Position numbers and translations under genes: made by a program. From a virus (taxonomy: Duplodnaviria; Heunggongvirae; Uroviricota; Caudoviricetes), in IMG/VR virus record IMGVR_UViG_3300045049_000270: a DNA stretch of 64,000 bases; one strand, 5' to 3'. Shown in pieces: positions 3,426-59,481 of this stretch (positions are counted from its first letter, which is position 1; every line of letters begins with the position of its first letter). Below the pieces are notes generated by a model. That model saw only the letters and a list, made by a program, of their open reading frames with translations, did not search any database and had not been told where the DNA came from.

Positions 3426-4190
3426 GTGAGCGTTTATCTTCGGCACATACCAATCAAAGACATCAGCGTGCCAGTACTGAATGTCAGTGCTGGTAATAAA
3501 AATGTCCTAAGTGTTCCAACGCAGCTTGGTTGTCCGGTCGGTTGTTCATTTTGCGTATCAACTACCAATAAATTTGTTCGTAATCTCACTGCTGATGAGA
3601 TTGTTGATTTGGTGGTCAAAAATGCACCAAATCACCCATTTGTTCTTTCATTTACTGGCGAGGGTGATGTTCTCTTTAACACCGAGAATGTGAGCAATGC
3701 TTTATCAACCCTCTACACTCTTAGCATACCGATCACATCAGTTCGTTATTCGATAAGTGGGGTTGCATCCCGCCGGATACGTTTTCTTGATACTACCACT
3801 TTCCCTGCTGAGTTACAGGTGTCGATGCACACTTTTAATCAGTCGATTCGTGATAAGATGATTCCAAAATCTGATCCGATTTATCGGATTTTGGAATCCG
3901 TATCCATGCATTACGCATCGTTCTCCAAAATTAGAATCAACTATGTATTGCGTGAAGGATTGAATGATACTCCTGGCGATATTACCCACCTTAAGCATTG
4001 GGGACATAATGATTGGGACTTCATTCTTAACCCATTCCTCACGCCTAACGGTGCTATCGTACATCCACGTGTAGATGACATAGCTATGGAAATGTTCTTT
4101 TCGGGTAGAAATGTCTATGTGTTTCGCAATGTAGGCGAAGACATCTGCGATAACGAGATTTACAATAACCTTACGTATCGCCAGCATTGA
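3426..4190 (+). CDS. radical SAM enzyme
   Basis: CxxxCxxC cluster motif in LGCPVGCSFCVST near the N-terminus; GTG start. Confidence 0.6.
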   Translation: MSVYLRHIPIKDISVPVLNVSAGNKNVLSVPTQLGCPVGCSFCVSTTNKFVRNLTADEIVDLVVKNAPNHPFVLSFTGEGDVLFNTENVSNALSTLYTLSIPITSVRYSISGVASRRIRFLDTTTFPAELQVSMHTFNQSIRDKMIPKSDPIYRILESVSMHYASFSKIRINYVLREGLNDTPGDITHLKHWGHNDWDFILNPFLTPNGAIVHPRVDDIAMEMFFSGRNVYVFRNVGEDICDNEIYNNLTYRQH

Positions 4191-5722: not shown

Positions 5723-5929
5723 ATGAGCTACACGGTGGTCGTTGAAATTAAAGTTGTCAACACTGAAGGTGAAGTGGTAGACCACAAAGGCTATCCGCAC
5801 ATGAACCCGCAGCGCAATTTCCATCCGCTGCAAACGGAACAGCGCTTTGTTACGTTCGAAGATGTCGAAAAGGCACACAACACGCTGAATGTGCTGCACG
5901 GTGTTGTCAAGCAGATGCAACAGCTTTAA
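5723..5929 (+). CDS. hypothetical protein (68 aa)
   Basis: family-P promoter at 5664; AAGGAG RBS. Confidence 0.45.
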   Translation: MSYTVVVEIKVVNTEGEVVDHKGYPHMNPQRNFHPLQTEQRFVTFEDVEKAHNTLNVLHGVVKQMQQL

Positions 5930-5945
5930 TTAACGGGAGCAGAAC

Positions 5946-6176
5946 ATGACTGCTATTGTCAAGAAGATCAAGCTGGAAATGGAAGTGTGGTGCGACGATT
6001 CGCGCGAATTTCACAACCTCATGCAGCTCATCAAGCAAGCACGTGTGATGGAAGGCGAGAATGGGCGGCACTGTGGGTATGGTTTTGCGATTCGAGTCGA
6101 TGAAGTGCCCGAGAAGGCTGTCCGTAAGGCGCTGGGCTTCCGTGTCGCTGACGTCGATTTCTGCGATTGTGACTAA
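5946..6176 (+). CDS. hypothetical protein (76 aa)
   Basis: GGGAG RBS then ATG. Confidence 0.45.
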   Translation: MTAIVKKIKLEMEVWCDDSREFHNLMQLIKQARVMEGENGRHCGYGFAIRVDEVPEKAVRKALGFRVADVDFCDCD

Positions 6177-6182
6177 AATCTC

Positions 6183-6240
6183 TTGATTCATGTTTAATAT
6201 GAACTTACCATCTGAACATGGTTAAACAATTGCAAGGAGT
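6183..6240 (+). promoter_or_regulatory. family-P promoter cassette
   Basis: TTGATT-N17-TACCAT; CTGAACATGGTTAAACAA leader; AAGGAG. Confidence 0.55.
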
Positions 6241-6245
6241 TCACG

Positions 6246-6545
6246 ATGTACATCGGCATGACGAAGACGGCATATGGGACACAACGCATTTATGTTCGCG
6301 CCCGCGACGTTGAACTGGAAAAGCTGTACGATCATTTCCAGACCTTCAAGAAGTTCCTGGATCTGGTGTGCTGCTGGGGTGGCGCCGACAAGTCCGATCG
6401 TGACCGCGACGGTGAAGGTGGCTTCATCTCGTGGGAGATCAGCGAAGAAGATGCATATTCCGTCTACAATGCTTTGCCGGTCATGCTGCGTCGTATGGGC
6501 GTGTCCTTCGAAGAAGACATTCTGAAGGCAACCGACTGCTCCTAA
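6246..6545 (+). CDS. hypothetical protein (99 aa)
   Basis: family-P promoter at 6183; AAGGAG RBS. Confidence 0.45.
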   Translation: MYIGMTKTAYGTQRIYVRARDVELEKLYDHFQTFKKFLDLVCCWGGADKSDRDRDGEGGFISWEISEEDAYSVYNALPVMLRRMGVSFEEDILKATDCS

Positions 6546-6646
6546 GGTGTTCACGTGAAAGTCATCAAGATTGAATTGCTCGATGCCAACGAGCGCGAAG
6601 TGGGACAATGACGTGTGGAAAGAATACTACGTCGAGTGAAAAACAC

Positions 6647-6704
6647 TTGATACCATGTTCAGATGAACATATCATGCGAAACATGGTAGACAGACAGGAG
6701 AAGG
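6647..6704 (+). promoter_or_regulatory. family-P promoter cassette
   Basis: TTGATA-N17-TATCAT; perfect palindrome ATGTTCAGATGAACAT in the spacer; leader AACATGGTAGACAGACAGGAG. Confidence 0.6.
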
Positions 6705-6706
6705 AG

Positions 6707-6925
6707 ATGAACAGCGCAGAACGTTACAAGGCACGTCAACAAGAACGTCGTGTTGAAACTGAACGTGCTCTCCTTGAATTTCAAGAATATGGTTTCGAGA
6801 TCTTCGAAACCAGTGAGCAAACGGCAAAGATTCACATGGAACAAGCTGCTGCTCTTCTTGCACGTTACCAATCTAAAGAACGCGTTCAGATGATGATCGT
6901 GGCCTTACAAAAAGCAATCTCATGA
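6707..6925 (+). CDS. hypothetical protein
   Basis: family-P promoter at 6647; GGAGAAGGAG RBS; ATG MNSAERYK; the track start lies inside the leader. Confidence 0.45.
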   Translation: MNSAERYKARQQERRVETERALLEFQEYGFEIFETSEQTAKIHMEQAAALLARYQSKERVQMMIVALQKAIS

Positions 6926-7212
6926 GTGTTATTGAAGAGCTCGACGAAGGTTCGCTAAATACATTCCTTTCAACATTTTATGTTGAAAGGGGAGTCATCA
7001 AAGCAAGCTTGCGTTCGTTTAAGAAACCAATATATCTTGTTGATCTGGATATAAGAAATTGGACGACAAGCAATCAAGATGAAGTAATATCTTGGTTGAA
7101 AGAAAATACAAAGGACGACTATGTTTCCGACATTGCCGTTGGCATGTTTTTCTTTCAAAGCCACGTCGATGCTATGCAGTTTTACCTAACGTGGGGAGAT
7201 CGCTTTGTCTAG
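6922..7212 (+). CDS. LTWG-family paralog (C-terminal FF..DA..FYLTWG motif)
   Basis: C-terminus FFFQSHVDAMQFYLTWG; ATGA overlap. Confidence 0.5.
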   Translation: MSVIEELDEGSLNTFLSTFYVERGVIKASLRSFKKPIYLVDLDIRNWTTSNQDEVISWLKENTKDDYVSDIAVGMFFFQSHVDAMQFYLTWGDRFV

Positions 7213-7531
7213 CATTGTCGAAATAACTGATGTCGAAGCGTTTTTGAACCAGTTCGACAAAGACATCAAGAAAGCAGTACGCCAGCGCATCAATACCCTT
7301 GACGAAGTCCCCTTTTATCTAGTGACTATCACGGGCAACGATGTGACAAAGAACGCTGCGGTTTATACCATGTTCGAGTGGCTGCTAGACAATGTTCAGC
7401 ATAAAGTGGTAAAGCAATACCCCCATGCACGCTTAGGATATACTGCGGTGAGCGCTATGGGTTATTACTTCTTCAAACAACACGCAGATGCACTTGCATT
7501 CTATTTCAGGTTTGGTAATGAATATGAGTAG
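7205..7531 (+). CDS. LTWG-family paralog
   Basis: C-terminus YYFFKQHADALAFYFRFG; TTG start overlapping the upstream stop. Confidence 0.45.
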   Translation: MSSIVEITDVEAFLNQFDKDIKKAVRQRINTLDEVPFYLVTITGNDVTKNAAVYTMFEWLLDNVQHKVVKQYPHARLGYTAVSAMGYYFFKQHADALAFYFRFGNEYE

Positions 7532-7533
7532 GT

Positions 7534-7911
7534 TTAAAACAACCTAGCTATCCACAAACCGGATCGATATGCGATTGTACCAAATAGCGTCAACGGCCAC
7601 AACATAATCAAGCAAAAATCAAGCTCATCATCCCCGCTGAGAGTACCATCCCCAGTCACTAAGTGTCGGAACACTCCAAACGTTGCACCAATACCAAATA
7701 CGTACAGCACAACGATAAGCACACCGAGCCAAATCGGTAAGTATGCGACGCATACGGCCGCAAGCGTAATCACAAGAAACAAAATCAAAAATCCGATCAT
7801 ATCGATCCTCACATAATAGGTTGCCATTTTACACTGACAATCTCTTGTCAAAGTGGTTTTCCGCCATGTTGCATCAAAGCAACGAATCAAAAAGTTGAAA
7901 AATTTGTTCAT
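7534..7911 (-). CDS. small membrane protein (start uncertain)
   Basis: two TM helices (IGFLILFLVITLAAVCVAYLPIWLGVLIVVLYVFGIGATFGVF); one of few minus-strand genes. Confidence 0.4.
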   Translation of the reverse strand: MNKFFNFLIRCFDATWRKTTLTRDCQCKMATYYVRIDMIGFLILFLVITLAAVCVAYLPIWLGVLIVVLYVFGIGATFGVFRHLVTGDGTLSGDDELDFCLIMLWPLTLFGTIAYRSGLWIARLF

Positions 7912-7917
7912 TTAGCT

Positions 7918-8010
7918 GTTGACTCAAGTATCAAATGAACACAGAATGTGATACATGGTAGACGCGCAGTGCAAAGAAAGCACTGCAAAATGGTAAAAAC
8001 TTTAAAGGAG
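7918..8010 (+). promoter_or_regulatory. family-P-like promoter (longer leader) upstream of WGR paralog 1
   Basis: TTGACT-N17-CAGAAT; TCAAATGAACA spacer; GATACATGGTAGAC leader; AAGGAG. Confidence 0.45.
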
Positions 8011-8017
8011 ATTACAA

Positions 8018-8515
8018 ATGGCAAAGGTTGAAATTCTGCGTGTTGGTCATGCACTGATCGCTGGCAAGCGTGGTGATAACGGTGGTGCTCCGTCGAAGGA
8101 CAGCGTGTTCGGTGTGGCAAAGGTACAAGGCAACCTCGTGACGTTCGGTGGCCGCCGTGGTGGCATGCTGCGTTTCAAGACATACAAGAAAGATGCACTC
8201 GAAAGCGTACTCGCATTTTACGCGAAGAAGCTGACGGGCAAGGACAAGGGTTTTGCGTATAAGGATCTCGATGCTGCGGCTCAGGTCGAAACGCTCGGTG
8301 CCGATTTTGAAGCAAACCTCGGCAAGATGTTCTACAAGGCGATGGGCAACGGCAAGCTGAACACGCGTTCGACGAAGCCGCAAGCTCCGAAGTACAAGGC
8401 ACCGAACCCGAAGAAGGTGTTCGCGTTCCCGACGCAAGCTTCGGTGGCGGCTGCCGCTGCGGCAGCCGAAAAGGCAGCCAAGAAGGCGGCAAAGGCCGAT
8501 AAGGCTGCTGCGTAA
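8018..8515 (+). CDS. WGR-domain-like small basic protein, paralog 1, with Ala/Lys-rich tail
   Basis: SKDSVFGVAKV...GRRGGMLRFKT...KKLTGK resembles the WGR core (FWEIE..G..V.V.WGRIG..G); H1-like tail AEKAAKKAAKADKAAA. Confidence 0.6.
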   Translation: MAKVEILRVGHALIAGKRGDNGGAPSKDSVFGVAKVQGNLVTFGGRRGGMLRFKTYKKDALESVLAFYAKKLTGKDKGFAYKDLDAAAQVETLGADFEANLGKMFYKAMGNGKLNTRSTKPQAPKYKAPNPKKVFAFPTQASVAAAAAAAEKAAKKAAKADKAAA

Positions 8516-8532
8516 GCAGTAACGCGTAATAC

Positions 8533-8565
8533 AATGGCTAGGTTTTACCCTAGCCATCGTCATTT
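8533..8565 (+). terminator. probable terminator hairpin (weak U-tract)
   Basis: ATGGCTAGG-TTTTAC-CCTAGCCAT. Confidence 0.45.
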
Positions 8566-8571
8566 CTGGTG

Positions 8572-8628
8572 TTGATGTTTTGTTCATTTGAACTTACCAT
8601 ATGATTATGGTTAACAACAGGAGCAAAC
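8572..8628 (+). promoter_or_regulatory. family-P promoter cassette
   Basis: TTGATG-N17-TACCAT; TTGTTCATTTGAAC spacer; ATGGTTAACAACAGGAG leader. Confidence 0.55.
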
Positions 8629-8630
8629 AA

Positions 8631-9101
8631 ATGCGTATCGCCGACATCAACGCAACCAAAGATCAGTTCGAAGCCGCACTGGGTATCGAGACTTTCGATA
8701 ATCTCTGCACGGTGCTCAGCTATTTGTCCGAGAACGACGAGCTCATTCGCCAGCTTTGCCAAGCATACAAGGAAGTCTTGCCTGACGCTCCTTTTTGTTC
8801 GATGTTCAACCATGTTTTCCTGGATTCCGAAAAGGCGTTCGGAAAGCTCTACAGCAAAGAAGAAATCGACGAACTTCTGCTGCGTATGCGCCAATACATC
8901 GTGCCACAATCGCAAGTGCATGGCTTCGATGATTTCGACATCAATTTCTCGGCAATCAAACGTCTCGCGGGAATTGGTGTGAACGTTGCTATCGACTTCA
9001 TCGGCGATGCGGAAACGGAGAAGGAGGCAGAAACGCGCACTTCTGTTCGTGTCACGTTTGTGGTTGTGCAGTACGGTGCATCATTCGAGGTCAAGTGCTA
9101 A
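8631..9101 (+). CDS. hypothetical protein
   Basis: family-P promoter at 8572; AGGAG RBS; ATG MRIADINATK. Confidence 0.5.
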   Translation: MRIADINATKDQFEAALGIETFDNLCTVLSYLSENDELIRQLCQAYKEVLPDAPFCSMFNHVFLDSEKAFGKLYSKEEIDELLLRMRQYIVPQSQVHGFDDFDINFSAIKRLAGIGVNVAIDFIGDAETEKEAETRTSVRVTFVVVQYGASFEVKC

Positions 9102-9108
9102 AAAGTGC

Positions 9109-9165
9109 TTGTAACCATGTTCAGGTGAATGTACCATCTGAACATGGTAAAACAAACACGGAGTC
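9109..9165 (+). promoter_or_regulatory. family-P promoter cassette
   Basis: TTGTAA-N17-TACCAT; CCATGTTCAGGTGAATG spacer; CTGAACATGGTAAAACAAACACGGAG. Confidence 0.6.
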
Positions 9166-9169
9166 TAGT

Positions 9170-9490
9170 ATGAACCGGCAAGAACTTGGCGCAATTGATG
9201 ATGAACTGAATGCAGTTAACCAACAGATCCGAGATCTGGAGCAACGGCGTGGTGAACTGCGTGAAGCTTACGCCCAAGGACACGCCGAGCTTTCCGGTTA
9301 TTCTGCTGGCTGCACAGTGCGATATAAGGCTTCCAATAAGGTCGTCAAAGAAGGGGTGGTTGCTTTTGTCAGGGCTCACCATACGCATGATTACGCGTAT
9401 GAAGTGGTGATCGATTGCACAGATGGTAACCGTATGTGGGTAAGGGGAAATTCGAAGAACCTCTGGTCTGTTAAGAAGGCAGGAGAATAA
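9170..9490 (+). CDS. hypothetical protein
   Basis: family-P promoter at 9109; ACGGAG RBS; ATG MNRQELGAID. Confidence 0.5.
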   Translation: MNRQELGAIDDELNAVNQQIRDLEQRRGELREAYAQGHAELSGYSAGCTVRYKASNKVVKEGVVAFVRAHHTHDYAYEVVIDCTDGNRMWVRGNSKNLWSVKKAGE

Positions 9491-9611
9491 GCGCAAAAGT
9501 GTTTGACGCCATAGTGTACTTGCAATACAATATGGCTTAGTAGTTGCAGTAAACCTTAAGGTGGCGTTGATGGGACTCGAAAACTATCTCATCACTTTTA
9601 AGGAGCAGTTC

Positions 9612-10181
9612 ATGAAGAAAATCATGTCGTTGTTTCAACGTAACTACGAAGGGGATCGTAAGGTTCGTGACGAAGTTACTCCGGGTGCTGAATGGGTTGT
9701 TCAGGGTGAAGGTTACGCTACTCGTAAATGGGATGGCGTGGCTGTGTTGGTAAAGGATGGTCAAGTCTTTAAGCGTTACGACGCTAAGACTGGGAGAACA
9801 CCTCCCATTGACTTCATTCCTGCCCAACCTAACCCTGATCCGAAAAGCGGGCACTGGCCTGGTTGGGTTCCCGCTGAAGGCCCGGAATCGAAGTACATTC
9901 GAGAAGCTGTCGAATGGGCGCAGAAGAACAAGTTTGCCGGTGGAATCCCTGATGGCACATATGAAGCGTGTGGTCCCAAAATTGGGACACGTCACGGTGC
10001 TAATCCTGAAGGTTTGACCGAACACATTCTTGTTCCTCACGGTAAGGATATCTTAGAAGATTGCCCGCGCACGTTTGATGGCATCAAAGAATGGTTGCGC
10101 GACAAGCCTATCGAAGGCATTGTTTGGCATCACGAAGATGGTCGCCTTGTGAAAATCAAGAAAGCTGACTTTCCGTACTAA
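9612..10181 (+). CDS. ligase-family nucleotidyltransferase (small ATP-dependent RNA/DNA ligase-like)
   Basis: motif I RKWDG (KxDG); motif IV PIEGIVWHH (EGhV); motif V RLVKIKK; AAGGAG RBS before MKKIMSLF. Confidence 0.6.
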   Translation: MKKIMSLFQRNYEGDRKVRDEVTPGAEWVVQGEGYATRKWDGVAVLVKDGQVFKRYDAKTGRTPPIDFIPAQPNPDPKSGHWPGWVPAEGPESKYIREAVEWAQKNKFAGGIPDGTYEACGPKIGTRHGANPEGLTEHILVPHGKDILEDCPRTFDGIKEWLRDKPIEGIVWHHEDGRLVKIKKADFPY

Positions 10182-10186
10182 GCTGT

Positions 10187-10220
10187 AAAAGATGGCCCCA
10201 TATGGGGCCATCTGCCATTT
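10187..10220 (+). terminator. probable terminator hairpin
   Basis: AGATGGCCCCA-TAT-GGGGCCATCT then GCCATTT. Confidence 0.5.
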
Positions 10221-10311
10221 GGCGGCTTTACATTTGGTATGATTTGTCATACAATGAATAAATGAATGGCTTATGGTAGCTTGATCATCAAAAACGAATA
10301 AAGGAGCATCA

Positions 10312-11547
10312 ATGCGGATCGCGATTACCGGTAACATTGGCTGTGGAAAATCCACATTCACGAAACTATTGGTGAAACATCTTACACCAAATTACACTCA
10401 AGCAAGCATCGATGAGATGGTTCACGAGCTTTATAAGAACACCGAATTTGCTAAGGAGCTGAAGGAACAATTCAGAACGGATGATCGCAAGCAAATATCG
10501 GATATCGTATTCAACGACCCAGAGCAACGTAAATGGCTTGAAGATTTGGTGAAAACGCACATGCGGTTGCGAATGATAAAAATCGACAGTCAGAATCACA
10601 TCGTAGTTGAATTTCCGCTGTTGTTTGAAATGTGCAATAATGACAAATACGATTTCATCATCACGTGTATGTGCGACGATGAGACGCAAGAAAAACGTGT
10701 GACTGCACGTGATGGCTTCACTGCCGAAAAAATCGCAAAGATTCGTGGTGCGCAACTCAGTACTATTGTGAAGTCGGCAATGTCGGATGAAACAATTGAC
10801 ACTAATGTTTCGCTTGAAGAGCTTGAAACTGAAGCTAAACGCATTGCTGGTAACATTGCTCGAAAAGATCTACGTTTATTCTTCCAAAGCGCCTTTTACA
10901 AAAAAGAAAAGGAAGCTGGTGAATTGTTCGACAATGCGATGAAACAATATCACGGTTTTGATCGGCACTGGCATAATGCAGATCACCCACTTGCTATGTA
11001 TCGATGGTTTATGTCGAATCTTGACAAATTCAACTATCCTGGCATTGCCGGTATTGCGATCATCTATCATGATGTGGTCTACAGTACGTATAAGACTCTG
11101 TATCCACATAATGAATCTCAAAGCGTTAAGTTCATGATTGATCAATTCAAAGCAATTATGCCAGAAGCATTGCGATTTGAAATTGAAGATGGTATCCCAT
11201 CACTCGCAGTTGCTGCTGAATACATCATGAGTACGAAAACGCATTCGGCTTCTTCGCATTTCTTGAAAGCCAATCCTAAGTTGAAAAACGATTGTGAATT
11301 GTTTCTTGATGTGGACTTGATGATGTTGGGTGGAACTCCCGAGGAGGCTGAAGCATTTGATGACGCAGTATATCAGGAGTTCAAAAATGAGTATGAAATT
11401 CGAACATTTGCTAGAGGCCGGGTTTCTGTATTGAAGACATTTTTGCGTCGACCAAAAGTTTTTCAATCATCGCACTTTGCACATCTCGAAGATAATGCAC
11501 GTGCAAACTTGGACACACTTATCAAGAAATGGGAGCGTTGGGTCTAA
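10312..11547 (+). CDS. coaE: dephospho-CoA kinase (CoaE) fused to a C-terminal HD-like domain
   Basis: N-terminal ~190 aa aligns with CoaE: MRIAITGNIGCGKST (P-loop), FNDPEQRKWLEDLV, PLLFE...; C-terminus has H..H / HD / H / D pattern (HWHNADH...IIYHD). Confidence 0.7.
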   Translation: MRIAITGNIGCGKSTFTKLLVKHLTPNYTQASIDEMVHELYKNTEFAKELKEQFRTDDRKQISDIVFNDPEQRKWLEDLVKTHMRLRMIKIDSQNHIVVEFPLLFEMCNNDKYDFIITCMCDDETQEKRVTARDGFTAEKIAKIRGAQLSTIVKSAMSDETIDTNVSLEELETEAKRIAGNIARKDLRLFFQSAFYKKEKEAGELFDNAMKQYHGFDRHWHNADHPLAMYRWFMSNLDKFNYPGIAGIAIIYHDVVYSTYKTLYPHNESQSVKFMIDQFKAIMPEALRFEIEDGIPSLAVAAEYIMSTKTHSASSHFLKANPKLKNDCELFLDVDLMMLGGTPEEAEAFDDAVYQEFKNEYEIRTFARGRVSVLKTFLRRPKVFQSSHFAHLEDNARANLDTLIKKWERWV

Positions 11548-12059
11548 TGTATACGATCGGTATGGTTACTGGATCGTTCGATCCAATCACACGAGGACAT
11601 GAATGGATGGTCGAACGTGCTTGTCGTACGTTCGATGAAGTCTACTTTGCGATTGCTTACAATCCAGCAAAGAAGGGAATGTTCAATTCGATCGAACGTG
11701 AGGAACTGGCACGGCGAGTGTTGGCTGACTCACTCACATCTGAGCTGTTCGAAAAGTTGAAGTTTGTAGTGATAGAAAATGAATTCACGGTCAGTGTGGC
11801 GAAGCGTCTAGGGGTGACCACAATCATGCGTGGCATTCGCAATGCTGTTGACTTTGGTTACGAGAAAGATATTCAAGGCTTCAACACCGATATCGAAAAT
11901 AGCATCGACCATGTCTTTGTAATTCCTCCCGAAGATATCACGCGTATCAGCTCATCAGCTGTGCGCGGGTTTGTCGGAATTAACAACTGGGAAGAAAAAG
12001 TGGCAAAATATATTCACCCATTTGTTCTGCAGGCGTTAGCAGATCGGGCGAATGTATGA
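11547..12059 (+). CDS. coaD: phosphopantetheine adenylyltransferase (PPAT/CoaD)
   Basis: GSFDPITRGH (T/HxGH motif), NPAKKGMFNSIEREEL, ISSSAVRG closely track E. coli CoaD; ATG overlaps the coaE stop (TAATG). Confidence 0.75.
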   Translation: MYTIGMVTGSFDPITRGHEWMVERACRTFDEVYFAIAYNPAKKGMFNSIEREELARRVLADSLTSELFEKLKFVVIENEFTVSVAKRLGVTTIMRGIRNAVDFGYEKDIQGFNTDIENSIDHVFVIPPEDITRISSSAVRGFVGINNWEEKVAKYIHPFVLQALADRANV

Positions 12060-12334
12060 TTGCTTGGACTCTTGAAGAATATCTCGATCCCACACTTGCC
12101 TTTCTGGGTCGTCAACAGAAGATTCATGACTTTGAACTAGAGCATGGTTTCAAACCTGAAGTCATTGTTCGTTTGACTTTCAGCGAAGGTTTTAGGTTCG
12201 ATAACCATGCTTTTCACCTTTTATATCGAGGATTGCGCGGCGATGTGATCTGTGAGCGATCTAATGATAGAAGACCATATCAAGTGTATTTCAAAAGCTT
12301 TATAGATTATCTTACGGTTCATTTGGCCGCATAG
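12056..12334 (+). CDS. hypothetical protein
   Basis: ATGA overlap with coaD. Confidence 0.45.
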   Translation: MIAWTLEEYLDPTLAFLGRQQKIHDFELEHGFKPEVIVRLTFSEGFRFDNHAFHLLYRGLRGDVICERSNDRRPYQVYFKSFIDYLTVHLAA

Positions 12335-12337
12335 CTC

Positions 12338-12390
12338 TTGATATCATGCTCATATGAACGTACCATATGAGCATGATTACTTCAGGAGAT
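12338..12390 (+). promoter_or_regulatory. family-P promoter cassette
   Basis: TTGATA-N17-TACCAT; CATGCTCATATGAACG / ATGAGCATG inverted repeat. Confidence 0.55.
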
Positions 12391-12391
12391 T

Positions 12392-12634
12392 ATGATGACT
12401 ACTCGAGTCGAATTGCAACGCTGGTTGGATCAATTTCCTGAAGACGCCCAGATCGAAGTAATTACAACAGCCGAAAATGATCGGTACGGTTATCAACCGT
12501 ACACCTCGGTCTATGAAACCGAAATGAAGCTTGAAGTTCCCGCCGACTACATAAGTTATTTTCAGGGAGAAACTTTCGAGATTGAAAAGTTTGGTGATCG
12601 CTTTGTCATACGACTTGGTAAGAAAGGTGATTGA
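12392..12634 (+). CDS. hypothetical protein (80 aa)
   Basis: family-P promoter at 12338; AGGAG RBS. Confidence 0.45.
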   Translation: MMTTRVELQRWLDQFPEDAQIEVITTAENDRYGYQPYTSVYETEMKLEVPADYISYFQGETFEIEKFGDRFVIRLGKKGD

Positions 12635-12906
12635 TGCAGTTACTCTCATTCGCAGCCTTCCAAGCCAGATATGGCGAAGATCGAGTTCGAAACTGGATGT
12701 CTCGAACAATGGGAAATGTTCGTTTCCTTCCTGGCTCAGTATTACTGCCTGATAAACACGATCACTTCTATGAAGTGGATCCTGATTGGCACACTGAAAA
12801 TGTGAAGGGGAAGATCGGTTTCAACCCAGCAGTAGATTTCATACCACCAGCAATTTATTTTCAGCATGAAACTGATGCGGTTGCCTGGTTGCTGGCTTGG
12901 GGTTGA
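12631..12906 (+). CDS. LTWG-family paralog
   Basis: C-terminus IYFQHETDAVAWLLAWG; ATGA overlap. Confidence 0.45.
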   Translation: MMQLLSFAAFQARYGEDRVRNWMSRTMGNVRFLPGSVLLPDKHDHFYEVDPDWHTENVKGKIGFNPAVDFIPPAIYFQHETDAVAWLLAWG

Positions 12907-12962
12907 CTTACGGTTCATATGAACGTATCATGTGAGTTCTTGTACTACGAAAGTCGGAGAAT
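12903..12962 (+). promoter_or_regulatory. family-P promoter cassette
   Basis: TTGACT-N17-TATCAT; GGTTCATATGAACG spacer. Confidence 0.55.
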
Positions 12963-12965
12963 CAC

Positions 12966-13163
12966 ATGAGCACGCATGGCATTATGGTCCAGAATCAGAA
13001 GGGCGAAACTCTGTATTACACAGGTAAGGCAGGTGAAAAATGGCTCAGCCCAAATTCGGAGGAAGCATTCATCGGATATAGCGAACAGGGAGCATTGTAC
13101 AGGGCTGGTAAGTTAAACAAACAACATGAGGGGTTATGGTTTAGCCCATATCCAGCAAAATGA
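12966..13163 (+). CDS. hypothetical protein (65 aa)
   Basis: family-P promoter at 12903; CGGAG RBS. Confidence 0.4.
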   Translation: MSTHGIMVQNQKGETLYYTGKAGEKWLSPNSEEAFIGYSEQGALYRAGKLNKQHEGLWFSPYPAK

Positions 13164-13483
13164 ATGCACAAATATTCAAACCACACGTCTTCAACGAGCT
13201 GAGTAAGCTCGATAAGCTATACGGTGACTTACACGAGGCCGGTAGCTGGTTCAAGAATGGTATCGAATCAGCTGAATTTCACATCGCGTGTGCAATGATC
13301 ATCATGTTCGACTCCAAACGTCGTTGGACATGGATCGAGCTATGCGAATGGCTTGAATCCGAGTGCGAGGGAGACCAACTTCCAATAATGCGTACGAAGA
13401 ACGGTAGCGGCGTTATGGCCGTGTTTTTCGAACGCGAAATTGACGCAATCAAGTTTTACATGACACACGGCGACAAAGTGTGA
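13160..13483 (+). CDS. LTWG-family paralog
   Basis: C-terminus VFFEREIDAIKFYMTHG; ATGA overlap. Confidence 0.5.
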   Translation: MNAQIFKPHVFNELSKLDKLYGDLHEAGSWFKNGIESAEFHIACAMIIMFDSKRRWTWIELCEWLESECEGDQLPIMRTKNGSGVMAVFFEREIDAIKFYMTHGDKV

Positions 13484-13493
13484 TGGTGTCAGC

Positions 13494-13766
13494 ATGGCTA
13501 AATTACAAACAACAAAAGAATGGTTGGATATTGAAGGGCCCGAACAGGGCAAGCGTGCCAATCTATTAATAGAACACTATCGCTCTTCAAAGAAGAACCA
13601 TCCATATGTTGTTACATTTGATTTGCCAAACAGCTTTACACATATAATCGATACCGTCAAAAATGAATATGACGGTTGTTTCACGCTCGATGGCAAGCTA
13701 AATGTGATGATGTGTTTCTTCACTGACTACAAAAATGCTTTGGCATTCTACCTTACGTGGTGCTGA
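13494..13766 (+). CDS. LTWG-family paralog
   Basis: C-terminus MCFFTDYKNALAFYLTWC. Confidence 0.5.
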   Translation: MAKLQTTKEWLDIEGPEQGKRANLLIEHYRSSKKNHPYVVTFDLPNSFTHIIDTVKNEYDGCFTLDGKLNVMMCFFTDYKNALAFYLTWC

Positions 13767-13767
13767 T

Positions 13768-14058
13768 ATGCCACTTCGAACAGTTCAAGATTGGATCAAG
13801 AATGGCAGTGAGGAGCATATAAGTGGCTCACATGAACTGTATCGTCAACACATAGTTGATGATCGCGAAGCCATTGAATTCCATATGTATCTATATGCTG
13901 TAGACATTGCCATTACCAATAGTAATATAATGGCATCTCGCCGTTGGGCAAAGCTCAATATTGAGTATGATTATTCAATAATACTGCTCAAAACAACCGT
14001 ACTTGGTTTATTCTCGAACTACCAAGACGCGCTGAACTATTTCCTGACTTGGGGTTAA
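13768..14058 (+). CDS. LTWG-family paralog
   Basis: C-terminus GLFSNYQDALNYFLTWG; ATG 2 nt after the upstream stop. Confidence 0.5.
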   Translation: MPLRTVQDWIKNGSEEHISGSHELYRQHIVDDREAIEFHMYLYAVDIAITNSNIMASRRWAKLNIEYDYSIILLKTTVLGLFSNYQDALNYFLTWG

Positions 14059-14061
14059 GGG

Positions 14062-14361
14062 ATGGCTATTATTCGTGAAATGGAAAGATGGTTCGCCATG
14101 AAAGATGATGAATTGCACAGTGCTGTCGAATATGTGATTCGACAGTCATTAAAGGCGGACTTCGAAGAAGTTAACAAACTACCGTCAGGGTATATAGTCA
14201 TGTCTGACGGTCTCGTTAAGTCTGAGCGAGATCAGGCTGTAAGGCTTTGGCACAAGGAACAAAAAATCAAATTGAACTGGCGACAGTTCGGTATGGTCGT
14301 TGTCACTATGTATGAAAAATACAACGATGCTTTGGCGTTCTATCTAACATTCGGCCAATAA
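14062..14361 (+). CDS. LTWG-family paralog
   Basis: C-terminus VTMYEKYNDALAFYLTFG. Confidence 0.5.
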   Translation: MAIIREMERWFAMKDDELHSAVEYVIRQSLKADFEEVNKLPSGYIVMSDGLVKSERDQAVRLWHKEQKIKLNWRQFGMVVVTMYEKYNDALAFYLTFGQ

Positions 14362-14362
14362 A

Positions 14363-14623
14363 ATGATATACAGTTGCAAAAATACAACAGACAAAATAGC
14401 AAAACGTGCAGCCTATATGGCCACAAAAATTGGTAATTTGTCGTTAGATGAATGCAATTTTATGGTCTTGATAGGCAATCAGACTATTGAAGAGCTCAGA
14501 GCCAATCTAGTTGAGCAGTGTGTAGGTAAGTTTTGGACTCATCACATTCCTACTGACAATATGTTAGTTGTGGTTTTTGAAGAGGTGCGAGATGCTCTCC
14601 TGTTCGACTTTACGTACAATTAA
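14363..14623 (+). CDS. LTWG-family paralog (divergent)
   Basis: C-terminus VVFEEVRDALLFDFTYN. Confidence 0.45.
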   Translation: MIYSCKNTTDKIAKRAAYMATKIGNLSLDECNFMVLIGNQTIEELRANLVEQCVGKFWTHHIPTDNMLVVVFEEVRDALLFDFTYN

Positions 14624-14681
14624 CCATACCTTCACCAGTTCTGATTCCTAGCTACTCACGTTCAAAAAGTTAGAAAAACTG

Positions 14682-14770
14682 TTGACGCCACATTTAAGTG
14701 ATCCTATCATTTGACATGTGGTGAGCAGTAACTGACAGACAACGCAACGTAGTAACTTTTCAAGGAGAAA
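14682..14770 (+). promoter_or_regulatory. family-P-like promoter (long leader) upstream of WGR paralog 2
   Basis: TTGACG-N17-TATCAT; TTGACATGTGGTGAGCAG leader; AAGGAG. Confidence 0.5.
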
Positions 14771-14773
14771 CAC

Positions 14774-15169
14774 ATGGCAAAGGTCGAAATCATCAAGCTG
14801 GGTCACGCACTGATCGAAGGCGAACGCGGCGAAAAGGGTGGCAAGCCGTCGAAGGACAGCGTCTGGGGTATCGCATACGTCGGCAACGCACTCGTCAAGT
14901 TCTACGGCCGTCGTGGTGGCAAGCTGCGCTTCAAGACGGAAAAGAAGGCCGCACTCGACGAAGCGCTGGCACTGTTCGAAGAAAAGCTGGCCGGCAAGGA
15001 CGTGAAGGGCATCAAGTACGTCGACGTGTCGAGCGCGAAGGGGATCAAGGAAACGTGTCCGTCGATCGTCGAAGATGTCAGCAAGGGCTACTACGCGGCT
15101 GTGCGTGAAGGCAAGGTAAACACGCGTTCGACGAAGGGCGCCCGCAAGGCTGCTGAAGCTGAAGCATAA
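14774..15169 (+). CDS. WGR-domain-like small basic protein, paralog 2
   Basis: MAKVEIIKLGHALIEGERGEKGGKPSKDSVWGIAYVGNALVKFYGRRGGKLRFKT...EEKLAGKDVKGIKY. Confidence 0.6.
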   Translation: MAKVEIIKLGHALIEGERGEKGGKPSKDSVWGIAYVGNALVKFYGRRGGKLRFKTEKKAALDEALALFEEKLAGKDVKGIKYVDVSSAKGIKETCPSIVEDVSKGYYAAVREGKVNTRSTKGARKAAEAEA

Positions 15170-15184
15170 GCCATGATTGGCGCA

Positions 15185-15218
15185 AAAGGCGGGGTGAGCG
15201 ATCCCCCGCTCTTTTGCT
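15185..15218 (+). terminator. rho-independent terminator
   Basis: AGGCGGGG-TGAGCGAT-CCCCCGCT followed by CTTTTGCT. Confidence 0.6.
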
Positions 15219-15228
15219 GAATGGCTGC

Positions 15229-15282
15229 TTGACTTCAAGTTCATACGAACGAACAATATGAATGTGAAGACAACAAGGAGAG
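15229..15282 (+). promoter_or_regulatory. family-P promoter cassette (weak -10)
   Basis: TTGACT-N17-AACAAT; TTCATACGAACG spacer. Confidence 0.45.
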
Positions 15283-15285
15283 GAA

Positions 15286-15501
15286 ATGTTCTACGAAGAT
15301 CCCACACTATACATGTTCAACGATCATCAACTAGATGAGGATGATTTTCGTGCCATGGATGACGAAATCGAGGCTTATAAAGCCGATGCAGCAGAACGAG
15401 AACGCTCCAGACGCGAAATCGAGCGCCGTGGTGATCGATTTGCAGTTACCAACATGGGTGACGCATTCCGGAATGCGTTAATGCGTCACAATCGGAAATG
15501 A
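15286..15501 (+). CDS. hypothetical protein (71 aa)
   Basis: family-P promoter at 15229; AAGGAGAGG RBS. Confidence 0.4.
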   Translation: MFYEDPTLYMFNDHQLDEDDFRAMDDEIEAYKADAAERERSRREIERRGDRFAVTNMGDAFRNALMRHNRK

Positions 15502-15755: not shown

Positions 15756-16865
15756 ATGGGCGGCCGACTTCATAGCCTTGAAGGCTTGCGCGGGTTTGCC
15801 GCTTTAATTGTTGTCTTCCTTCATGTTTATATGTCATTGCAAGCTGTACCAAATTCTGGTGCTGCCGCAAGTTTCTTTTCTTTTTCAAAGAACGGTTATT
15901 TGGCTGTTGATTTGTTCTTCGTATTGAGTGGTTTTGTAATATATGATTCATATAAATCGAAGCTGAGAAATAATTCTGATTTTGGTGCTTTTATATTGCG
16001 TCGAATTGGGAGATTGTGGCCAGCATTCATGATTGCGAATTTCATTTATTTTTTCTTACAATATCTCGCAAGCTTTCATGAATATCGATTACCAAGCATT
16101 ATTCAACTATTAGGTGTTGCGACGTTTCTTCAAGGTTTGGCTATCACGAATGTAATTGGTATTGCAGTAAGTTGGAGTGCCAGTGTTGAATTTTGGATCT
16201 ACTGTATATTCGCACTACTCTGTATTTCCCTACATGGAAAAATTAGAACGGCTGCGTTTATCGCATTTTCTCTTTTTGGTTATTCGATTGCTTTATGGCA
16301 GTCGATAATTGTTAGTTCATGTTTGACTAAGGGCGGATGTTTTGAACAAACCTATTACTTTGGATGGGGACGCGGTCTAGTTGGCTTCTTCATTGGTGCT
16401 CTGCTTGCCGAATATCGCAATCATCGATTTGTGATCAGTCTTTGTAAACCAAATATACAATTAGCGATATTTACCGGTACATTACTCTTTATTCTAATCG
16501 CTGATAGCATTCCAGGCTTAGCATGTGTTGCGCCATTATTGTTTGCATTATTCATAGCGACACTAACTATGAATAACGGACCAGTGACACTTTTACTCAA
16601 TAGTCGCTTTGCTCAATATTTGGGTAGAATTTCTTATTCATTGTATTTGAGCCATGCTGCCATAGTTATGGTTTTTGCTGCATTCATTGCTGTAACGACA
16701 GGTACTATTGAACGTGTAACCGCTGCTTCACTGTATATCACATTATCGATTGTCCTGGCGCATATTCTCAATATGCGAGTAGAGACACCAATACGTAAAC
16801 GAATCAATTCTTGGGTTGATTCAAAGTTCAATCAGAAAAGTTTGATAGTCACTCCAAGTGAATGA
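15756..16865 (+). CDS. acyltransferase family 3 (OafA/OatA-like) integral membrane protein
   Basis: N-terminal LEGLRGFAALIVVFLHV signature; about 10 predicted TM helices. Confidence 0.7.
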   Translation: MGGRLHSLEGLRGFAALIVVFLHVYMSLQAVPNSGAAASFFSFSKNGYLAVDLFFVLSGFVIYDSYKSKLRNNSDFGAFILRRIGRLWPAFMIANFIYFFLQYLASFHEYRLPSIIQLLGVATFLQGLAITNVIGIAVSWSASVEFWIYCIFALLCISLHGKIRTAAFIAFSLFGYSIALWQSIIVSSCLTKGGCFEQTYYFGWGRGLVGFFIGALLAEYRNHRFVISLCKPNIQLAIFTGTLLFILIADSIPGLACVAPLLFALFIATLTMNNGPVTLLLNSRFAQYLGRISYSLYLSHAAIVMVFAAFIAVTTGTIERVTAASLYITLSIVLAHILNMRVETPIRKRINSWVDSKFNQKSLIVTPSE

Positions 16866-34176: not shown

Positions 34177-34410
34177 ATGCGAGCACGTGAACATCGTGGT
34201 GGATTGGCCGAATCACTGGCTACGGTCTTCAATTTCGAAACGAAGGAAGACTTGTTGACGGAAATTAACGAACGCATGGGGACACATTTTTGCCATGACG
34301 ACATTGCATTCCTTCATCAAGGAAAAGATGAACGCATTGGTTGGGATACTTACTTGGTGAGTGTGCGTGGCTATGGTGTGTTCGGATATACAGATGGGAT
34401 ACCAAAATAA
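34177..34410 (+). CDS. hypothetical protein (77 aa)
   Basis: AGAGGG RBS then ATG; stop overlaps the tpt1 start (ATAATG). Confidence 0.4.
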   Translation: MRAREHRGGLAESLATVFNFETKEDLLTEINERMGTHFCHDDIAFLHQGKDERIGWDTYLVSVRGYGVFGYTDGIPK

Positions 34411-34958
34411 TGAATGAAGACTTCAATAAAAAGTACAAAAAGCATAGTATTTGGTTGTCGTACTTGCTGCGACATGGTGCGAAAGAACAAAAAGTCAAAA
34501 TTGACAAACAAGCATTCATCCTAGTAGACGATGTGATAGCGGCGGGCAAGAAAGCAGGTTATGAATTTGATCTTGAAATCCTGAAAGGAATTGTTGCTAA
34601 CGATCAGAAGGGCCGTTATTCATTCAATGAAGACTTCACCAAAATTCGGGCAAACCAAGGACATTCCATTAATGTTGATCCTGGGTTGCAAAAAGCAGTG
34701 CCGCCAGTGATCTTGTATCACGGCACTTCAAGCGAAGCTTGGGAGATCATCAAGAAGAAAGGTCTCAATAAGATGACACGCACTCACGTTCATCTCACTG
34801 CTGACATTGAACTGGCTCGGAAACGGTTTCGAAAAACTGTAGTAATCGAAGTTGACTCTAAAGCTATGCTGGCTGATAAAGTTGATTTCTACAAGTCAGC
34901 AAATGATGTGTGGCTGGTTGATGCCGTAGATGCAAAGTATCTGAAGCTTGTGGAATGA
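34410..34958 (+). CDS. kptA: RNA 2'-phosphotransferase (Tpt1/KptA)
   Basis: near-collinear with E. coli KptA: WLSYLLRHG, GRYSF...IRANQGHS, VILYHGTSSEAWEIIKKKGL, RTHVHLTAD, NDVWLVD. Confidence 0.8.
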   Translation: MNEDFNKKYKKHSIWLSYLLRHGAKEQKVKIDKQAFILVDDVIAAGKKAGYEFDLEILKGIVANDQKGRYSFNEDFTKIRANQGHSINVDPGLQKAVPPVILYHGTSSEAWEIIKKKGLNKMTRTHVHLTADIELARKRFRKTVVIEVDSKAMLADKVDFYKSANDVWLVDAVDAKYLKLVE

Positions 34959-43307: not shown

Positions 43308-43382
43308 GCGTCTGTAGCTCAGTGGAAGAGCAGGGCCCTTACAAGGCCAAGGTCGGGAGTTCAACCCTCTCCAGACGCACCA
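43308..43382 (+). tRNA. tRNA-Val (anticodon UAC), CCA encoded
   Basis: hand-folded cloverleaf: acceptor GCGTCTG/CAGACGC, D-arm GCTC-AGTGGAA-GAGC, anticodon loop CTTACAA, T-arm GGGAG-TTCAACC-CTCTC, then A-CCA. Confidence 0.7.
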
Positions 43383-43423
43383 TTTTGGGGAATTAGCTCA
43401 GCTGGCGAAAGCTGGCCCCCGTT

Positions 43424-43500
43424 CTCCGGTTAGTATAGTCTGGTTAGTATACGTGGTTTGGGACCATGGGACGCAAGTTCGAATCTTGCACTGGAGACCA
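43424..43500 (+). tRNA. tRNA-like gene, possibly tRNA-Pro (UGG); D-arm non-canonical
   Basis: acceptor CTCCGGT/ACTGGAG, anticodon arm CGTGG-TTTGGGA-CCATG, T-arm GCAAG-TTCGAAT-CTTGC, A-CCA end; D-region holds a GGTTAGTATA direct repeat I could not fold cleanly. Confidence 0.4.
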
Positions 43501-59373: not shown

Positions 59374-59481
59374 ACGTTGTTAAAGCAATCCCAGATGAAA
59401 TAAATATTTCAAAACAAAATTGGCACGGGCATTGTATAATAGATGTCTGTGCCATTTGCCAATTATTTTCTGGAGATTGTC

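Follow-up and report, generated by a model that had tools for sequence, protein, structure and literature searches.

The locus

The stretch of DNA analysed here (the window, 64 kb) comes from a phage of ~524 kb in the class Caudoviricetes, IMG/VR record IMGVR_UViG_3300045049_000270. Two overlapping genes on its plus strand are predicted to encode the last two enzymes of coenzyme A (CoA) biosynthesis. The second gene encodes phosphopantetheine adenylyltransferase (PPAT, CoaD). The first encodes dephospho-CoA kinase (DPCK, CoaE), fused to a C-terminal domain of the HD superfamily. The pair, called the cassette below, has the following features.

10312..11547, plus strand: CoaE-HD fusion gene of 411 residues, from the listing of open reading frames (ORFs)
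10312..10866, plus strand: predicted dephospho-CoA kinase (CoaE) domain, residues 1-185, from TIGR00152, Pfam CoaE and Foldseek
10936..11544, plus strand: predicted HD-superfamily phosphodiesterase-like domain, residues 209-411, from invariant residues
11547..12059, plus strand: predicted CoaD gene (phosphopantetheine adenylyltransferase, 170 residues), from TIGR01510, PDB sequence matches and an alignment

The ATG at 11547 shares one nucleotide with the TAA stop of the fusion gene (TAATG), an overlap that an earlier first-pass annotation of the letters had reported correctly. The ORF listing gives the CoaD frame as 11529-12059, with an in-frame upstream ATG at 11529. The start of CoaD is most likely the ATG at 11547, because it forms the stop overlap and because the gene call in a sister contig uses the equivalent start and ignores the upstream ATG. 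The CoaE-HD and CoaD genes are predicted to be translationally coupled through the TAATG overlap.

The kinase and the adenylyltransferase

The N-terminal domain of the fusion protein is solidly assigned, from sequence and model, as a dephospho-CoA kinase. The P-loop GNIGCGKST lies at residues 7-15, and FNDPEQRKWLEDLV at residues 67-80 aligns with FANPEEKNWLNALL of E. coli CoaE. The profile searches that the first-pass annotation had proposed place both enzymes above the equivalog cut-offs of NCBIfam: the CoaE domain scores 86.5 bits with TIGR00152 (cut-off 65.55) and the CoaD protein 133.3 bits with TIGR01510 (cut-off 103.3). Pfam CoaE (PF01121) matches residues 3-169 of the fusion protein at 79.4 bits (cut-off 27; E 3.4e-22), and 13 CoaE sequences in the PDB match with E values from 4e-13 to 3e-6. 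The AlphaFold2 model of the whole 411-residue protein has a predicted local distance difference test (pLDDT) value of 93.9 and a predicted template-modelling (pTM) score of 0.86. In a Foldseek search of the PDB, every match from rank 1 to rank 30 is a structure of dephospho-CoA kinase or CoA synthase (target-normalised TM score at most 0.84), and the model contains the three parts of the CoaE fold, namely the core, the CoA-binding domain and the lid. Neither the P-loop (G7-T15) nor D34 varies among 21 homologues, and both align with E. coli CoaE. D34 corresponds to E. coli Asp33, which we take to be the base proposed for the 3'-OH in published structures. A 100% identical 411-residue protein is found on a contig of 523,572 bp, where the JGI annotation is dephospho-CoA kinase.

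The assignment of the 170-residue protein as a phosphopantetheine adenylyltransferase is likewise solid on its predicted sequence features. The NadD and NMNAT models reach at most 45 bits, under their cut-offs, and all 34 of its PDB sequence matches are PPATs. The motifs GSFDPITRGH and NPAKKGMF are present. Nine cassette or HD-linked CoaDs were aligned with E. coli CoaD, and G9, D12, T15, G17, H18, K42, R95, G96, R98, E106, N113 and S135-137 are invariant in this alignment, the E. coli protein included. In E. coli numbering, the T/HxGH motif, H18, K42, R88-G-x-R91, E99, N106 and S128-S130 are all kept. The equivalog scores and catalytic residues of both proteins, and the expected fold of the kinase, thus bear out the first-pass claim of a CoaE-HD fusion followed by CoaD at this locus.

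The HD domain

The C-terminal part of the fusion protein (residues ~209-408) matches phrog_19425, 'phosphohydrolase', alone (1e-16). Single sequences, all 19 family members and a 19-sequence profile gave no usable match in Pfam, NCBIfam or the PDB sequences. The Pfam HD model PF01966 does not match the domain of the window, and one of 19 homologues reaches E 0.15 with it; PDEase_I (PF00233) has no match at E<=10 in the 19 members. Across 21 full-length homologues, H221, H225, H253, D254, N267, E268, H311, D333 and D335 are invariant. Because the H...HD...D ligand pattern is invariant in all 21 sequences, H225, H253-D254 and D333, together with H221, H311 and D335, are predicted to form an intact HD-type metal site.

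In the model, the domain is all-helical with an HD fold, and this is the fold of the catalytic domain of class I cyclic-nucleotide phosphodiesterases (PDEs). Its best fold matches are cyclic-nucleotide phosphodiesterases. Ordinary HD hydrolases score below them (2pq7 12.3, YpgQ 9.9, YedJ 9.7, YqeK 7.8 and MESH1 6.8). Compared with the class I PDEs (PDE1-PDE9), the domain has 11-16% identity and is ~100 residues smaller than their catalytic domains. The viral fold library BFVD has two good matches only, both nameless. The first-pass label of HD is right at the superfamily level; more exactly, the invariant residues and the predicted fold make the domain a phosphodiesterase-like member of an uncharacterised family.

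An exhaustive profile search retrieves 14,911 cluster representatives of this family; for 10,685, the E value is 1e-10 or lower. Standalone proteins of 200-230 residues make up most of the family, which is mostly chromosomal. Querying a word index with just the HD half gave no match, probably through a limitation of the tool, since the exhaustive search gave thousands. JGI labels some members 'predicted metal-dependent HD superfamily phosphohydrolase', and one NCBI record names a member 'N-methyl-D-aspartate receptor subunit'. A literature search found no paper on the family.

Linkage of the HD domain to CoaD and CoaE

Full-length homologues of the CoaE-HD protein number 21, with 32-64% identity. 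The architecture is present in 65 of the 167 retrieved proteins, in ~50 clusters at 50% identity. Loci were sampled via patterns taken from the fusion family, and the association frequencies in this section are biased accordingly. The CoaE-HD fusions adjoining CoaD come from metagenomic and IMG/VR contigs of 292-524 kb. CoaD abuts the fusion gene in every context examined (contigs L001/L002, L003, L004/L005, L006, L007 and L008), lying 5' of it in L007, and the pair is the sole unit common to seven contexts (the window, L001, L003, L004, L006, L007 and L008). The IMG/VR viral contigs L092 (523,836 bp, a sister of the window phage) and L093 (291,967 bp) carry the same pair. L003 and L004 have efflux-pump genes beside the cassette and may be non-phage; they are termed metagenomic contigs.

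The first-pass annotation called a phage CoaD-CoaE pair unusual. This is right for the fusion: tblastn against 50,697 GenBank phage records finds no CoaE-HD fusion and yields only matches to the CoaE half, at <=32% identity, while megablast of positions 9500-12400 against the same records gives no match. It holds less well for the pair itself, which recurs in the viral contigs L092-L096 and in LR756500, a record that carries both CoaE and CoaD. Of the phage-collection records with a CoaE or CoaD match, many seem to be host DNA under phage names, such as contigs of 1-9 kb named 'Listeria phage' or 'Enterococcus phage', whole-genome shotgun records of Salmonella and the 220-kb contigs of 'Acinetobacter phage MD-2021a'. 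Counts of phage CoaD and CoaE from that collection are therefore inflated.

The cassette does not diverge evenly. Between the window and positions 7292-9742 of the sister contig L001, the upstream RNA ligase is 88% and CoaD 87% identical, and the intervening CoaE-HD protein reaches only 64% identity (62% and 67% in its two halves). This could reflect faster evolution of the fusion protein or its replacement by a different allele.

The HD domain is joined to the two enzymes in four architectures: a CoaE-HD fusion beside CoaD, a CoaD-HD fusion beside CoaE, a standalone HD gene beside CoaD, and a standalone HD gene beside a CoaD-CoaE fusion. The second was found by a GTDB scan followed by searches with hidden Markov models. 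Four species of Patescibacteria/Saccharibacteria among the GTDB matches listed (L020, L032, L034 and L070) have CoaE followed by a CoaD-HD fusion of ~370 residues. The CoaD-HD family comprises roughly 90 or more clusters at 90% identity, and its members are annotated simply as PPAT, and once as an 'NMDA receptor subunit', with the HD domain unrecognised. In L020 the fusion lies at 8585-9718. Its neighbours in L020 are similar to genes of nicotinamide adenine dinucleotide (NAD) salvage, one like nicotinamide mononucleotide (NMN) adenylyltransferase and one Nudix-like, as judged from translations alone; with such neighbours, a cofactor-salvage cluster would result. In L061, L088 and L104-106, CoaD has a standalone HD gene as its direct neighbour. 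In the viral contig L096 (112,741 bp), a standalone HD gene is followed by a 389-residue CoaD-CoaE fusion that resembles eukaryotic CoA synthase (COASY). No close CoaE-HD fusion appears among the matches listed from the scan of GTDB species representatives.

Repeated fusion and adjacency in four architectures point to a shared pathway of the HD domain with PPAT and DPCK. This linkage, which the first-pass annotation did not see, carries more information. It also bears on the idea that the domain degrades an immune signal, such as those of CBASS, Pycsar, Thoeris or type III CRISPR systems, and became fused to the kinase by chance as an anti-defence function. The resemblance to cyclic-nucleotide phosphodiesterases agrees with that idea, as does the setting, an accessory region of the phage in which counter-defence-like genes such as Lar are also found. 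The repeated independent links to CoaD and CoaE, including the ~90+ CoaD-HD clusters in Patescibacteria and chromosomal bacterial loci, argue against it, and so does a family that is huge and mostly chromosomal. We consider the idea highly improbable.

Proposed function

We propose that the two coupled genes form a CoA module with three activities on the ~524-kb phage, in which the HD domain would act on a phosphoester of the CoA family and perhaps free 4'-phosphopantetheine. We give this reading a probability of about 0.6. In this module, CoaD would adenylylate 4'-phosphopantetheine with ATP to give dephospho-CoA, and the N-terminal domain of the fusion protein would phosphorylate the 3'-OH of dephospho-CoA to give CoA. 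Together the two enzymes would convert 4'-phosphopantetheine and two ATP into CoA. By supplying the steps downstream of 4'-phosphopantetheine, the phage may keep or raise the CoA/acyl-CoA pool during infection, outside host regulation. In E. coli, feedback on CoaD and turnover of the prosthetic group of acyl carrier protein (ACP) occur. According to Jackowski and Rock, E. coli CoaD is reportedly a secondary control point, and 4'-phosphopantetheine is said to be otherwise lost by excretion. The cassette would bypass the host control point at CoaD and recapture 4'-phosphopantetheine.

The role of the HD domain is more tentative. As a metal-dependent PDE-like domain, it would act on a CoA-family phosphoester in the same pathway, as the fusions and neighbourhoods suggest. 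Its substrate is most likely a phosphoester, probably a diester, to judge from the predicted fold, and the associations point to the CoA node. The step that we favour is the release of 4'-phosphopantetheine from a phosphodiester-linked carrier, for which holo-ACP and a CoA derivative are candidates; this would feed CoaD. E. coli AcpH carries out such a reaction: it is a metal-dependent, non-canonical HD diesterase whose product is the substrate of CoaD, and it has no detectable sequence relation to the domain. A diesterase that releases 4'-phosphopantetheine is therefore a speculative assignment, made by analogy. Where the upstream CoA pathway is absent, as in huge phages and Patescibacteria, HD, CoaD and CoaE would then act in turn as a linear salvage route.

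Several observations weigh against a fixed role of the HD domain in CoA metabolism, or against an ACP-related role. CoaE and CoaD are adjacent without an HD domain within 6 kb in L094 (424,529 bp) and L095 (350,089 bp), so the domain is an accessory part of the module. Most standalone members of the family have neither CoaD nor CoaE within 8 kb, and P0030, a close standalone relative, lacks an adjacent CoaD. In bacterial genomes, 90 operon-like neighbours of standalone HD genes form a heterogeneous set with a few scattered enzymes that depend on CoA (enoyl-CoA hydratase, ECH, 3; GNAT 3; CoA-transferase 1), and no ACP or phosphopantetheinyl-transferase gene is among them. In the window, no further CoA or ACP gene is seen within the 64 kb. 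Aligned by hhalign with E. coli AcpH, the family profile has a probability of 0.2% (a weak test with a single-sequence template), and the Pfam model ACP_PD (PF04336) does not match any of the 19 members. Homology to AcpH is thus not supported. Many Patescibacteria are thought to be without fatty-acid synthesis, which weakens an ACP-specific role there.

The fold allows a different reaction on the same molecules. If the cassette makes CoA, the HD domain could be a 3'-phosphatase that acts on CoA, reversing the CoaE step, or on 3',5'-ADP (pAp). On CoA it would set the ratio of CoA to dephospho-CoA, as the HD enzyme MESH1 reverses NAD kinase; on 3',5'-ADP it would act on a by-product of phosphopantetheinyl transfer and CoA cleavage. 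Class I PDEs, the best fold matches, cut a 5'-phosphorylated purine nucleotide at its 3'-O-P bond. The same bond holds the 3'-phosphate in CoA or pAp, and the kinase that would make this phosphate is the direct fusion partner of the domain. However, a protein that combines a kinase with the phosphatase reversing it would run a futile cycle unless regulated. In addition, the domain is fused to CoaD in Patescibacteria and lies beside CoaD without CoaE in bacteria, which points to the PPAT step. A 3'-phosphatase is the main rival to the proposed diesterase, and we regard it as unlikely.

A bolder form of the proposed three-activity module is slightly less doubtful than the 3'-phosphatase, and doubtful all the same. 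In it, the HD domain would found a new family of phosphopantetheinyl hydrolases, diesterases that remove 4'-phosphopantetheine from holo-ACP, from further carrier proteins or from CoA derivatives, and make, with CoaD and CoaE, a self-contained three-step 'carrier-to-CoA' salvage module.

Transcription signals and neighbouring genes

The sequence around the cassette contains the following further features.

9561..10181, plus strand: RLIG1-like RNA ligase, directly 5' of the cassette (phrog_14301, 1.7e-86; partial Pfam RLIG1 match)
10190..10213, plus strand: perfect 10-bp hairpin AGATGGCCCC-ATAT-GGGGCCATCT, read from the sequence, directly 3' of the RNA ligase gene
10227..10255, plus strand: sigma-70-like promoter match TTTACA-17-TACAAT, 10/12, in the 130-bp gap 5' of the cassette
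10301..10306, plus strand: candidate Shine-Dalgarno AAGGAG, read from the sequence, 5 nt 5' of the ATG at 10312
12056..12334, plus strand: ORF of 92 residues that overlaps the coaD stop by 4 nt (ATGA)

The hairpin is terminator-like and may set the cassette apart from the ligase gene; a terminator scan marks a weaker site at 10212-10225, which overlaps it. The promoter match is a consensus match only: the region has no more such sites than shuffled sequence would be expected to have, and similar sites lie 5' of the neighbouring genes at 9503 and 12903. Because the hairpin, the promoter-like site and the AAGGAG occur together, the pair looks like a transcription unit of its own, downstream of the RNA ligase gene. 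The 92-residue ORF is probably co-transcribed with the cassette and has no family match in Pfam, NCBIfam or PHROG searches. As a member of the module it was rejected: its positional counterpart in the sister contig has no similarity to it.

The RNA ligase belongs to the context of the cassette and does not count among the conserved members of the module. In the sister contig the ligase gene is syntenic, with 88% identity, and in other contexts it does not adjoin the cassette. A ligase directly 5' of the cassette is seen in the window and the sister contig only; one lies 5 kb off in L003 and L006, and none is present in the flanks of L004, L007 and L008. In L003 and L006, an RNA ligase (PF09414) and a metallophosphoesterase are found a few kb from the cassette, to which L003 adds RtcB and an R2K ATP-grasp gene. 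The metallophosphoesterase neighbours were considered as PptH-like phosphopantetheinyl hydrolases and dropped, as the L003 and L007 proteins have no PDB sequence match. L003 further has three genes of phospholipid-synthesis type directly 5' of the cassette at 5741-7893 (a CDP-alcohol phosphatidyltransferase, a PlsC-like acyltransferase and a CdsA-like protein) and, further 5', an OEP/MFS/TetR efflux set.

With an RNA ligase so close, the P-loop kinase and the HD domain may be read as an RNA end-healing and sealing system, in which the kinase would phosphorylate RNA ends, the HD domain would remove 2',3'-cyclic or 3'-phosphates, and the upstream ligase would join the ends. Such a cluster is known from Runella slithyformis, with a ligase directly 5' of an HD and P-loop kinase fusion and Tpt1 near (PMC6097658). 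In the window, the ligase has the same position and a Tpt1/KptA gene is present; in L003 and L006, genes for RNA ligase, RtcB and metallophosphoesterase are found no more than ~7 kb from the cassette. The kinase itself argues otherwise: it is of CoaE type (79-86 bits, compared with 14.1 bits and E 0.06 for AAA_33), and its fold matches are all CoaE. The order of the domains is reversed relative to HD-Pnk, the conserved partner is a PPAT and not a ligase, and CoaD-HD and CoaD-CoaE fusions would be senseless for RNA repair. There is very little to recommend RNA end-healing as the function of the cassette. In L008, a 421-residue protein at 14108-15373, 5 kb from the cassette, has weak HD and AAA_33 kinase matches and is possibly an HD-Pnk-like RNA end-healing enzyme; both kinds of HD and kinase fusion can therefore occur on one element.

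The first-pass annotation offered two functions for the pair, a boost to CoA pools and RNA caps made of dephospho-CoA (dpCoA). Boosting or maintaining CoA fits better, since CoaD is always found with CoaE, and dpCoA caps find no support here. In the capping model, the cassette would raise dephospho-CoA as a non-canonical initiating nucleotide, and the HD domain would process the caps or revert CoA. CoaD would indeed make dephospho-CoA, genes of RNA metabolism are near (the RLIG1-like ligase directly 5' and Tpt1/KptA at 34341-34958), and a PDE-like HD domain could in principle take off a 3'-phosphate or a cap. What disfavours the model is that CoaE, which consumes dephospho-CoA, is invariably paired with CoaD and is fused to it in the viral contig L096. 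The same three-domain link also occurs in Patescibacteria, in what is apparently a cofactor-salvage cluster from the translations read, and the adjacency of the RNA ligase is kept in the sister phage only. Capping is a very unlikely role, if marginally less so than end-healing or the removal of immune signals.

Comparison with known systems

PPAT has been listed before as an auxiliary gene of phages (PMC8093824), and a literature search found no study of a phage CoA module. The fusion proteins themselves already carry the label 'dephospho-CoA kinase' at JGI. Neither the enzymes nor the concept of cofactor rebuilding by phages is new; the novelty lies in the third domain and its linkage.

The phage proteins exceed the equivalog cut-offs and have the catalytic motifs of bacterial housekeeping CoaD (EC 2.7.7.3) and CoaE (EC 2.7.1.24), although they are only 26-33% identical to the E. 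coli enzymes. In E. coli, coaD and coaE are unlinked, whereas they are adjacent and predicted to be translationally coupled in the phage. Compared with E. coli CoaE, the phage kinase has an extra 200-residue domain and a shorter insert region. The CoaD subfamily to which the phage protein belongs differs from E. coli CoaD by a conserved GW(E) insertion close to the C-terminus.

Coupling of the last two CoA steps is also seen in eukaryotic COASY, a PPAT-DPCK fusion, and mouse CoA synthase (2f6r) is among the fold matches. In the window, however, the enzymes are separate polypeptides, and the kinase is partnered with an HD domain, which COASY lacks. Mycobacterial CoaE carries a C-terminal UPF0157/GrpB domain (PMC2765170; NCBIfam NF002879). 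Both it and the phage protein are kinases of ~400 residues with an extra C-terminal domain, and their N-terminal halves match (6n39). The C-terminal domains are unrelated, GrpB-like in mycobacteria and HD/PDE-like here, and the phage protein reaches 45.7 bits with NF002879, whose cut-off is 215. PptH of M. tuberculosis (PMC8557913) is a metallophosphoesterase with a fold different from that of the HD domain.

A nicotinate mononucleotide (NaMN) adenylyltransferase beside or fused to an HD hydrolase of Ap4A is seen in NadD-YqeK. That arrangement belongs to another cofactor pathway and another HD subfamily, and the fold similarity of the HD domain to YqeK is much weaker than to PDEs. The HD-Pnk of Runella slithyformis (PMC6097658) likewise joins an HD domain and a P-loop kinase in one polypeptide directly 3' of a ligase with Tpt1 near, but the cassette has a CoaE kinase, the reversed domain order, another HD subfamily and a PPAT partner.

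Phages are known to encode other cofactor pathways, such as NAD+ salvage by NadV/NatV in KVP40 and NAD+ reconstitution by NARP1/2. As in these, the phage would supply the last steps in rebuilding an essential adenine-containing cofactor from a product of its breakdown; the cofactor differs. We know of no CoA-depleting defence system, and a counter-defence role of the cassette is conjecture.

Other genes in the window

The window contains mostly small ORFs on the same strand, HNH and SegE-like homing endonucleases, Lar, genes with PHROG matches and two tRNAs, and its label as phage is reasonable on this gene content. Acetyl-CoA-using genes are predicted in the window, namely an Acyl_transf_3 O-acetyltransferase at 15756-16865 on the plus strand (phrog_3333, 5e-43; Pfam 9e-27) and a GNAT. 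The former lies 4 kb 3' of the CoA genes, and both would consume acetyl-CoA.

Directly 3' of the cassette, six tandem genes of 86-107 residues (12631-14623, plus strand) resemble paralogues and have no family match seen. They share a C-terminal motif ...A(L/I)xF(Y)LTWG, for example ALAFYLTWC, ALNYFLTWG, ALAFYLTFGQ and AVAWLLAWG. Another pair of paralogues, at 8018-8515 and 14774-15169 (both plus strand), opens with MAKVEI(L/I)(R/K)(V/L)GHALI..G.RG..GG.PSKDSV. Their local GC content is ~50%, compared with ~43%, and they have long antisense ORFs; the copy at 8018-8515 has no Pfam match.

The Tpt1/KptA RNA 2'-phosphotransferase gene (34341-34958, plus strand; Pfam 6.9e-43) lies 22 kb 3' of the cassette. 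A gene of the arginase/agmatinase family (59443-60342, plus strand; Pfam 2.1e-56) is of polyamine type. So is an S-adenosylmethionine decarboxylase-like (AdoMet_dc) gene in the window, and in the sister contig L001 it lies at 3712-4077. A radical SAM gene precedes AdoMet_dc in L001, as it does in the window at 3426-4190. At 43308-43500 on the plus strand, a tRNA gene for Val-TAC adjoins one for Pro-TGG.

Implications

Rebuilding of NAD+ by phages matters for infection and counter-defence, and its CoA equivalent is unstudied; the locus offers it as a compact two-gene cassette. If the HD domain is unrelated to CoA, the finding shrinks to an ordinary pair of auxiliary metabolic genes. If the domain makes 4'-phosphopantetheine, it would fill a gap in the turnover of the ACP prosthetic group outside the narrow AcpH and PptH families, and it would explain the source of substrate in organisms and phages that have CoaD and CoaE only. 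Should the bolder salvage module prove true, huge phages would drain the ACP prosthetic group of the host into CoA and shut off host fatty-acid synthesis, and Patescibacteria would live without the upstream CoA pathway by means of the module. It would also be the first function for a family of ~15,000 clusters that has no Pfam model or solved structure and a misannotation as an 'NMDA receptor subunit'. The fusion pattern is a functional lead for this large family of PDE-like HD proteins, and it leads towards the 4'-phosphopantetheine/dephospho-CoA node.

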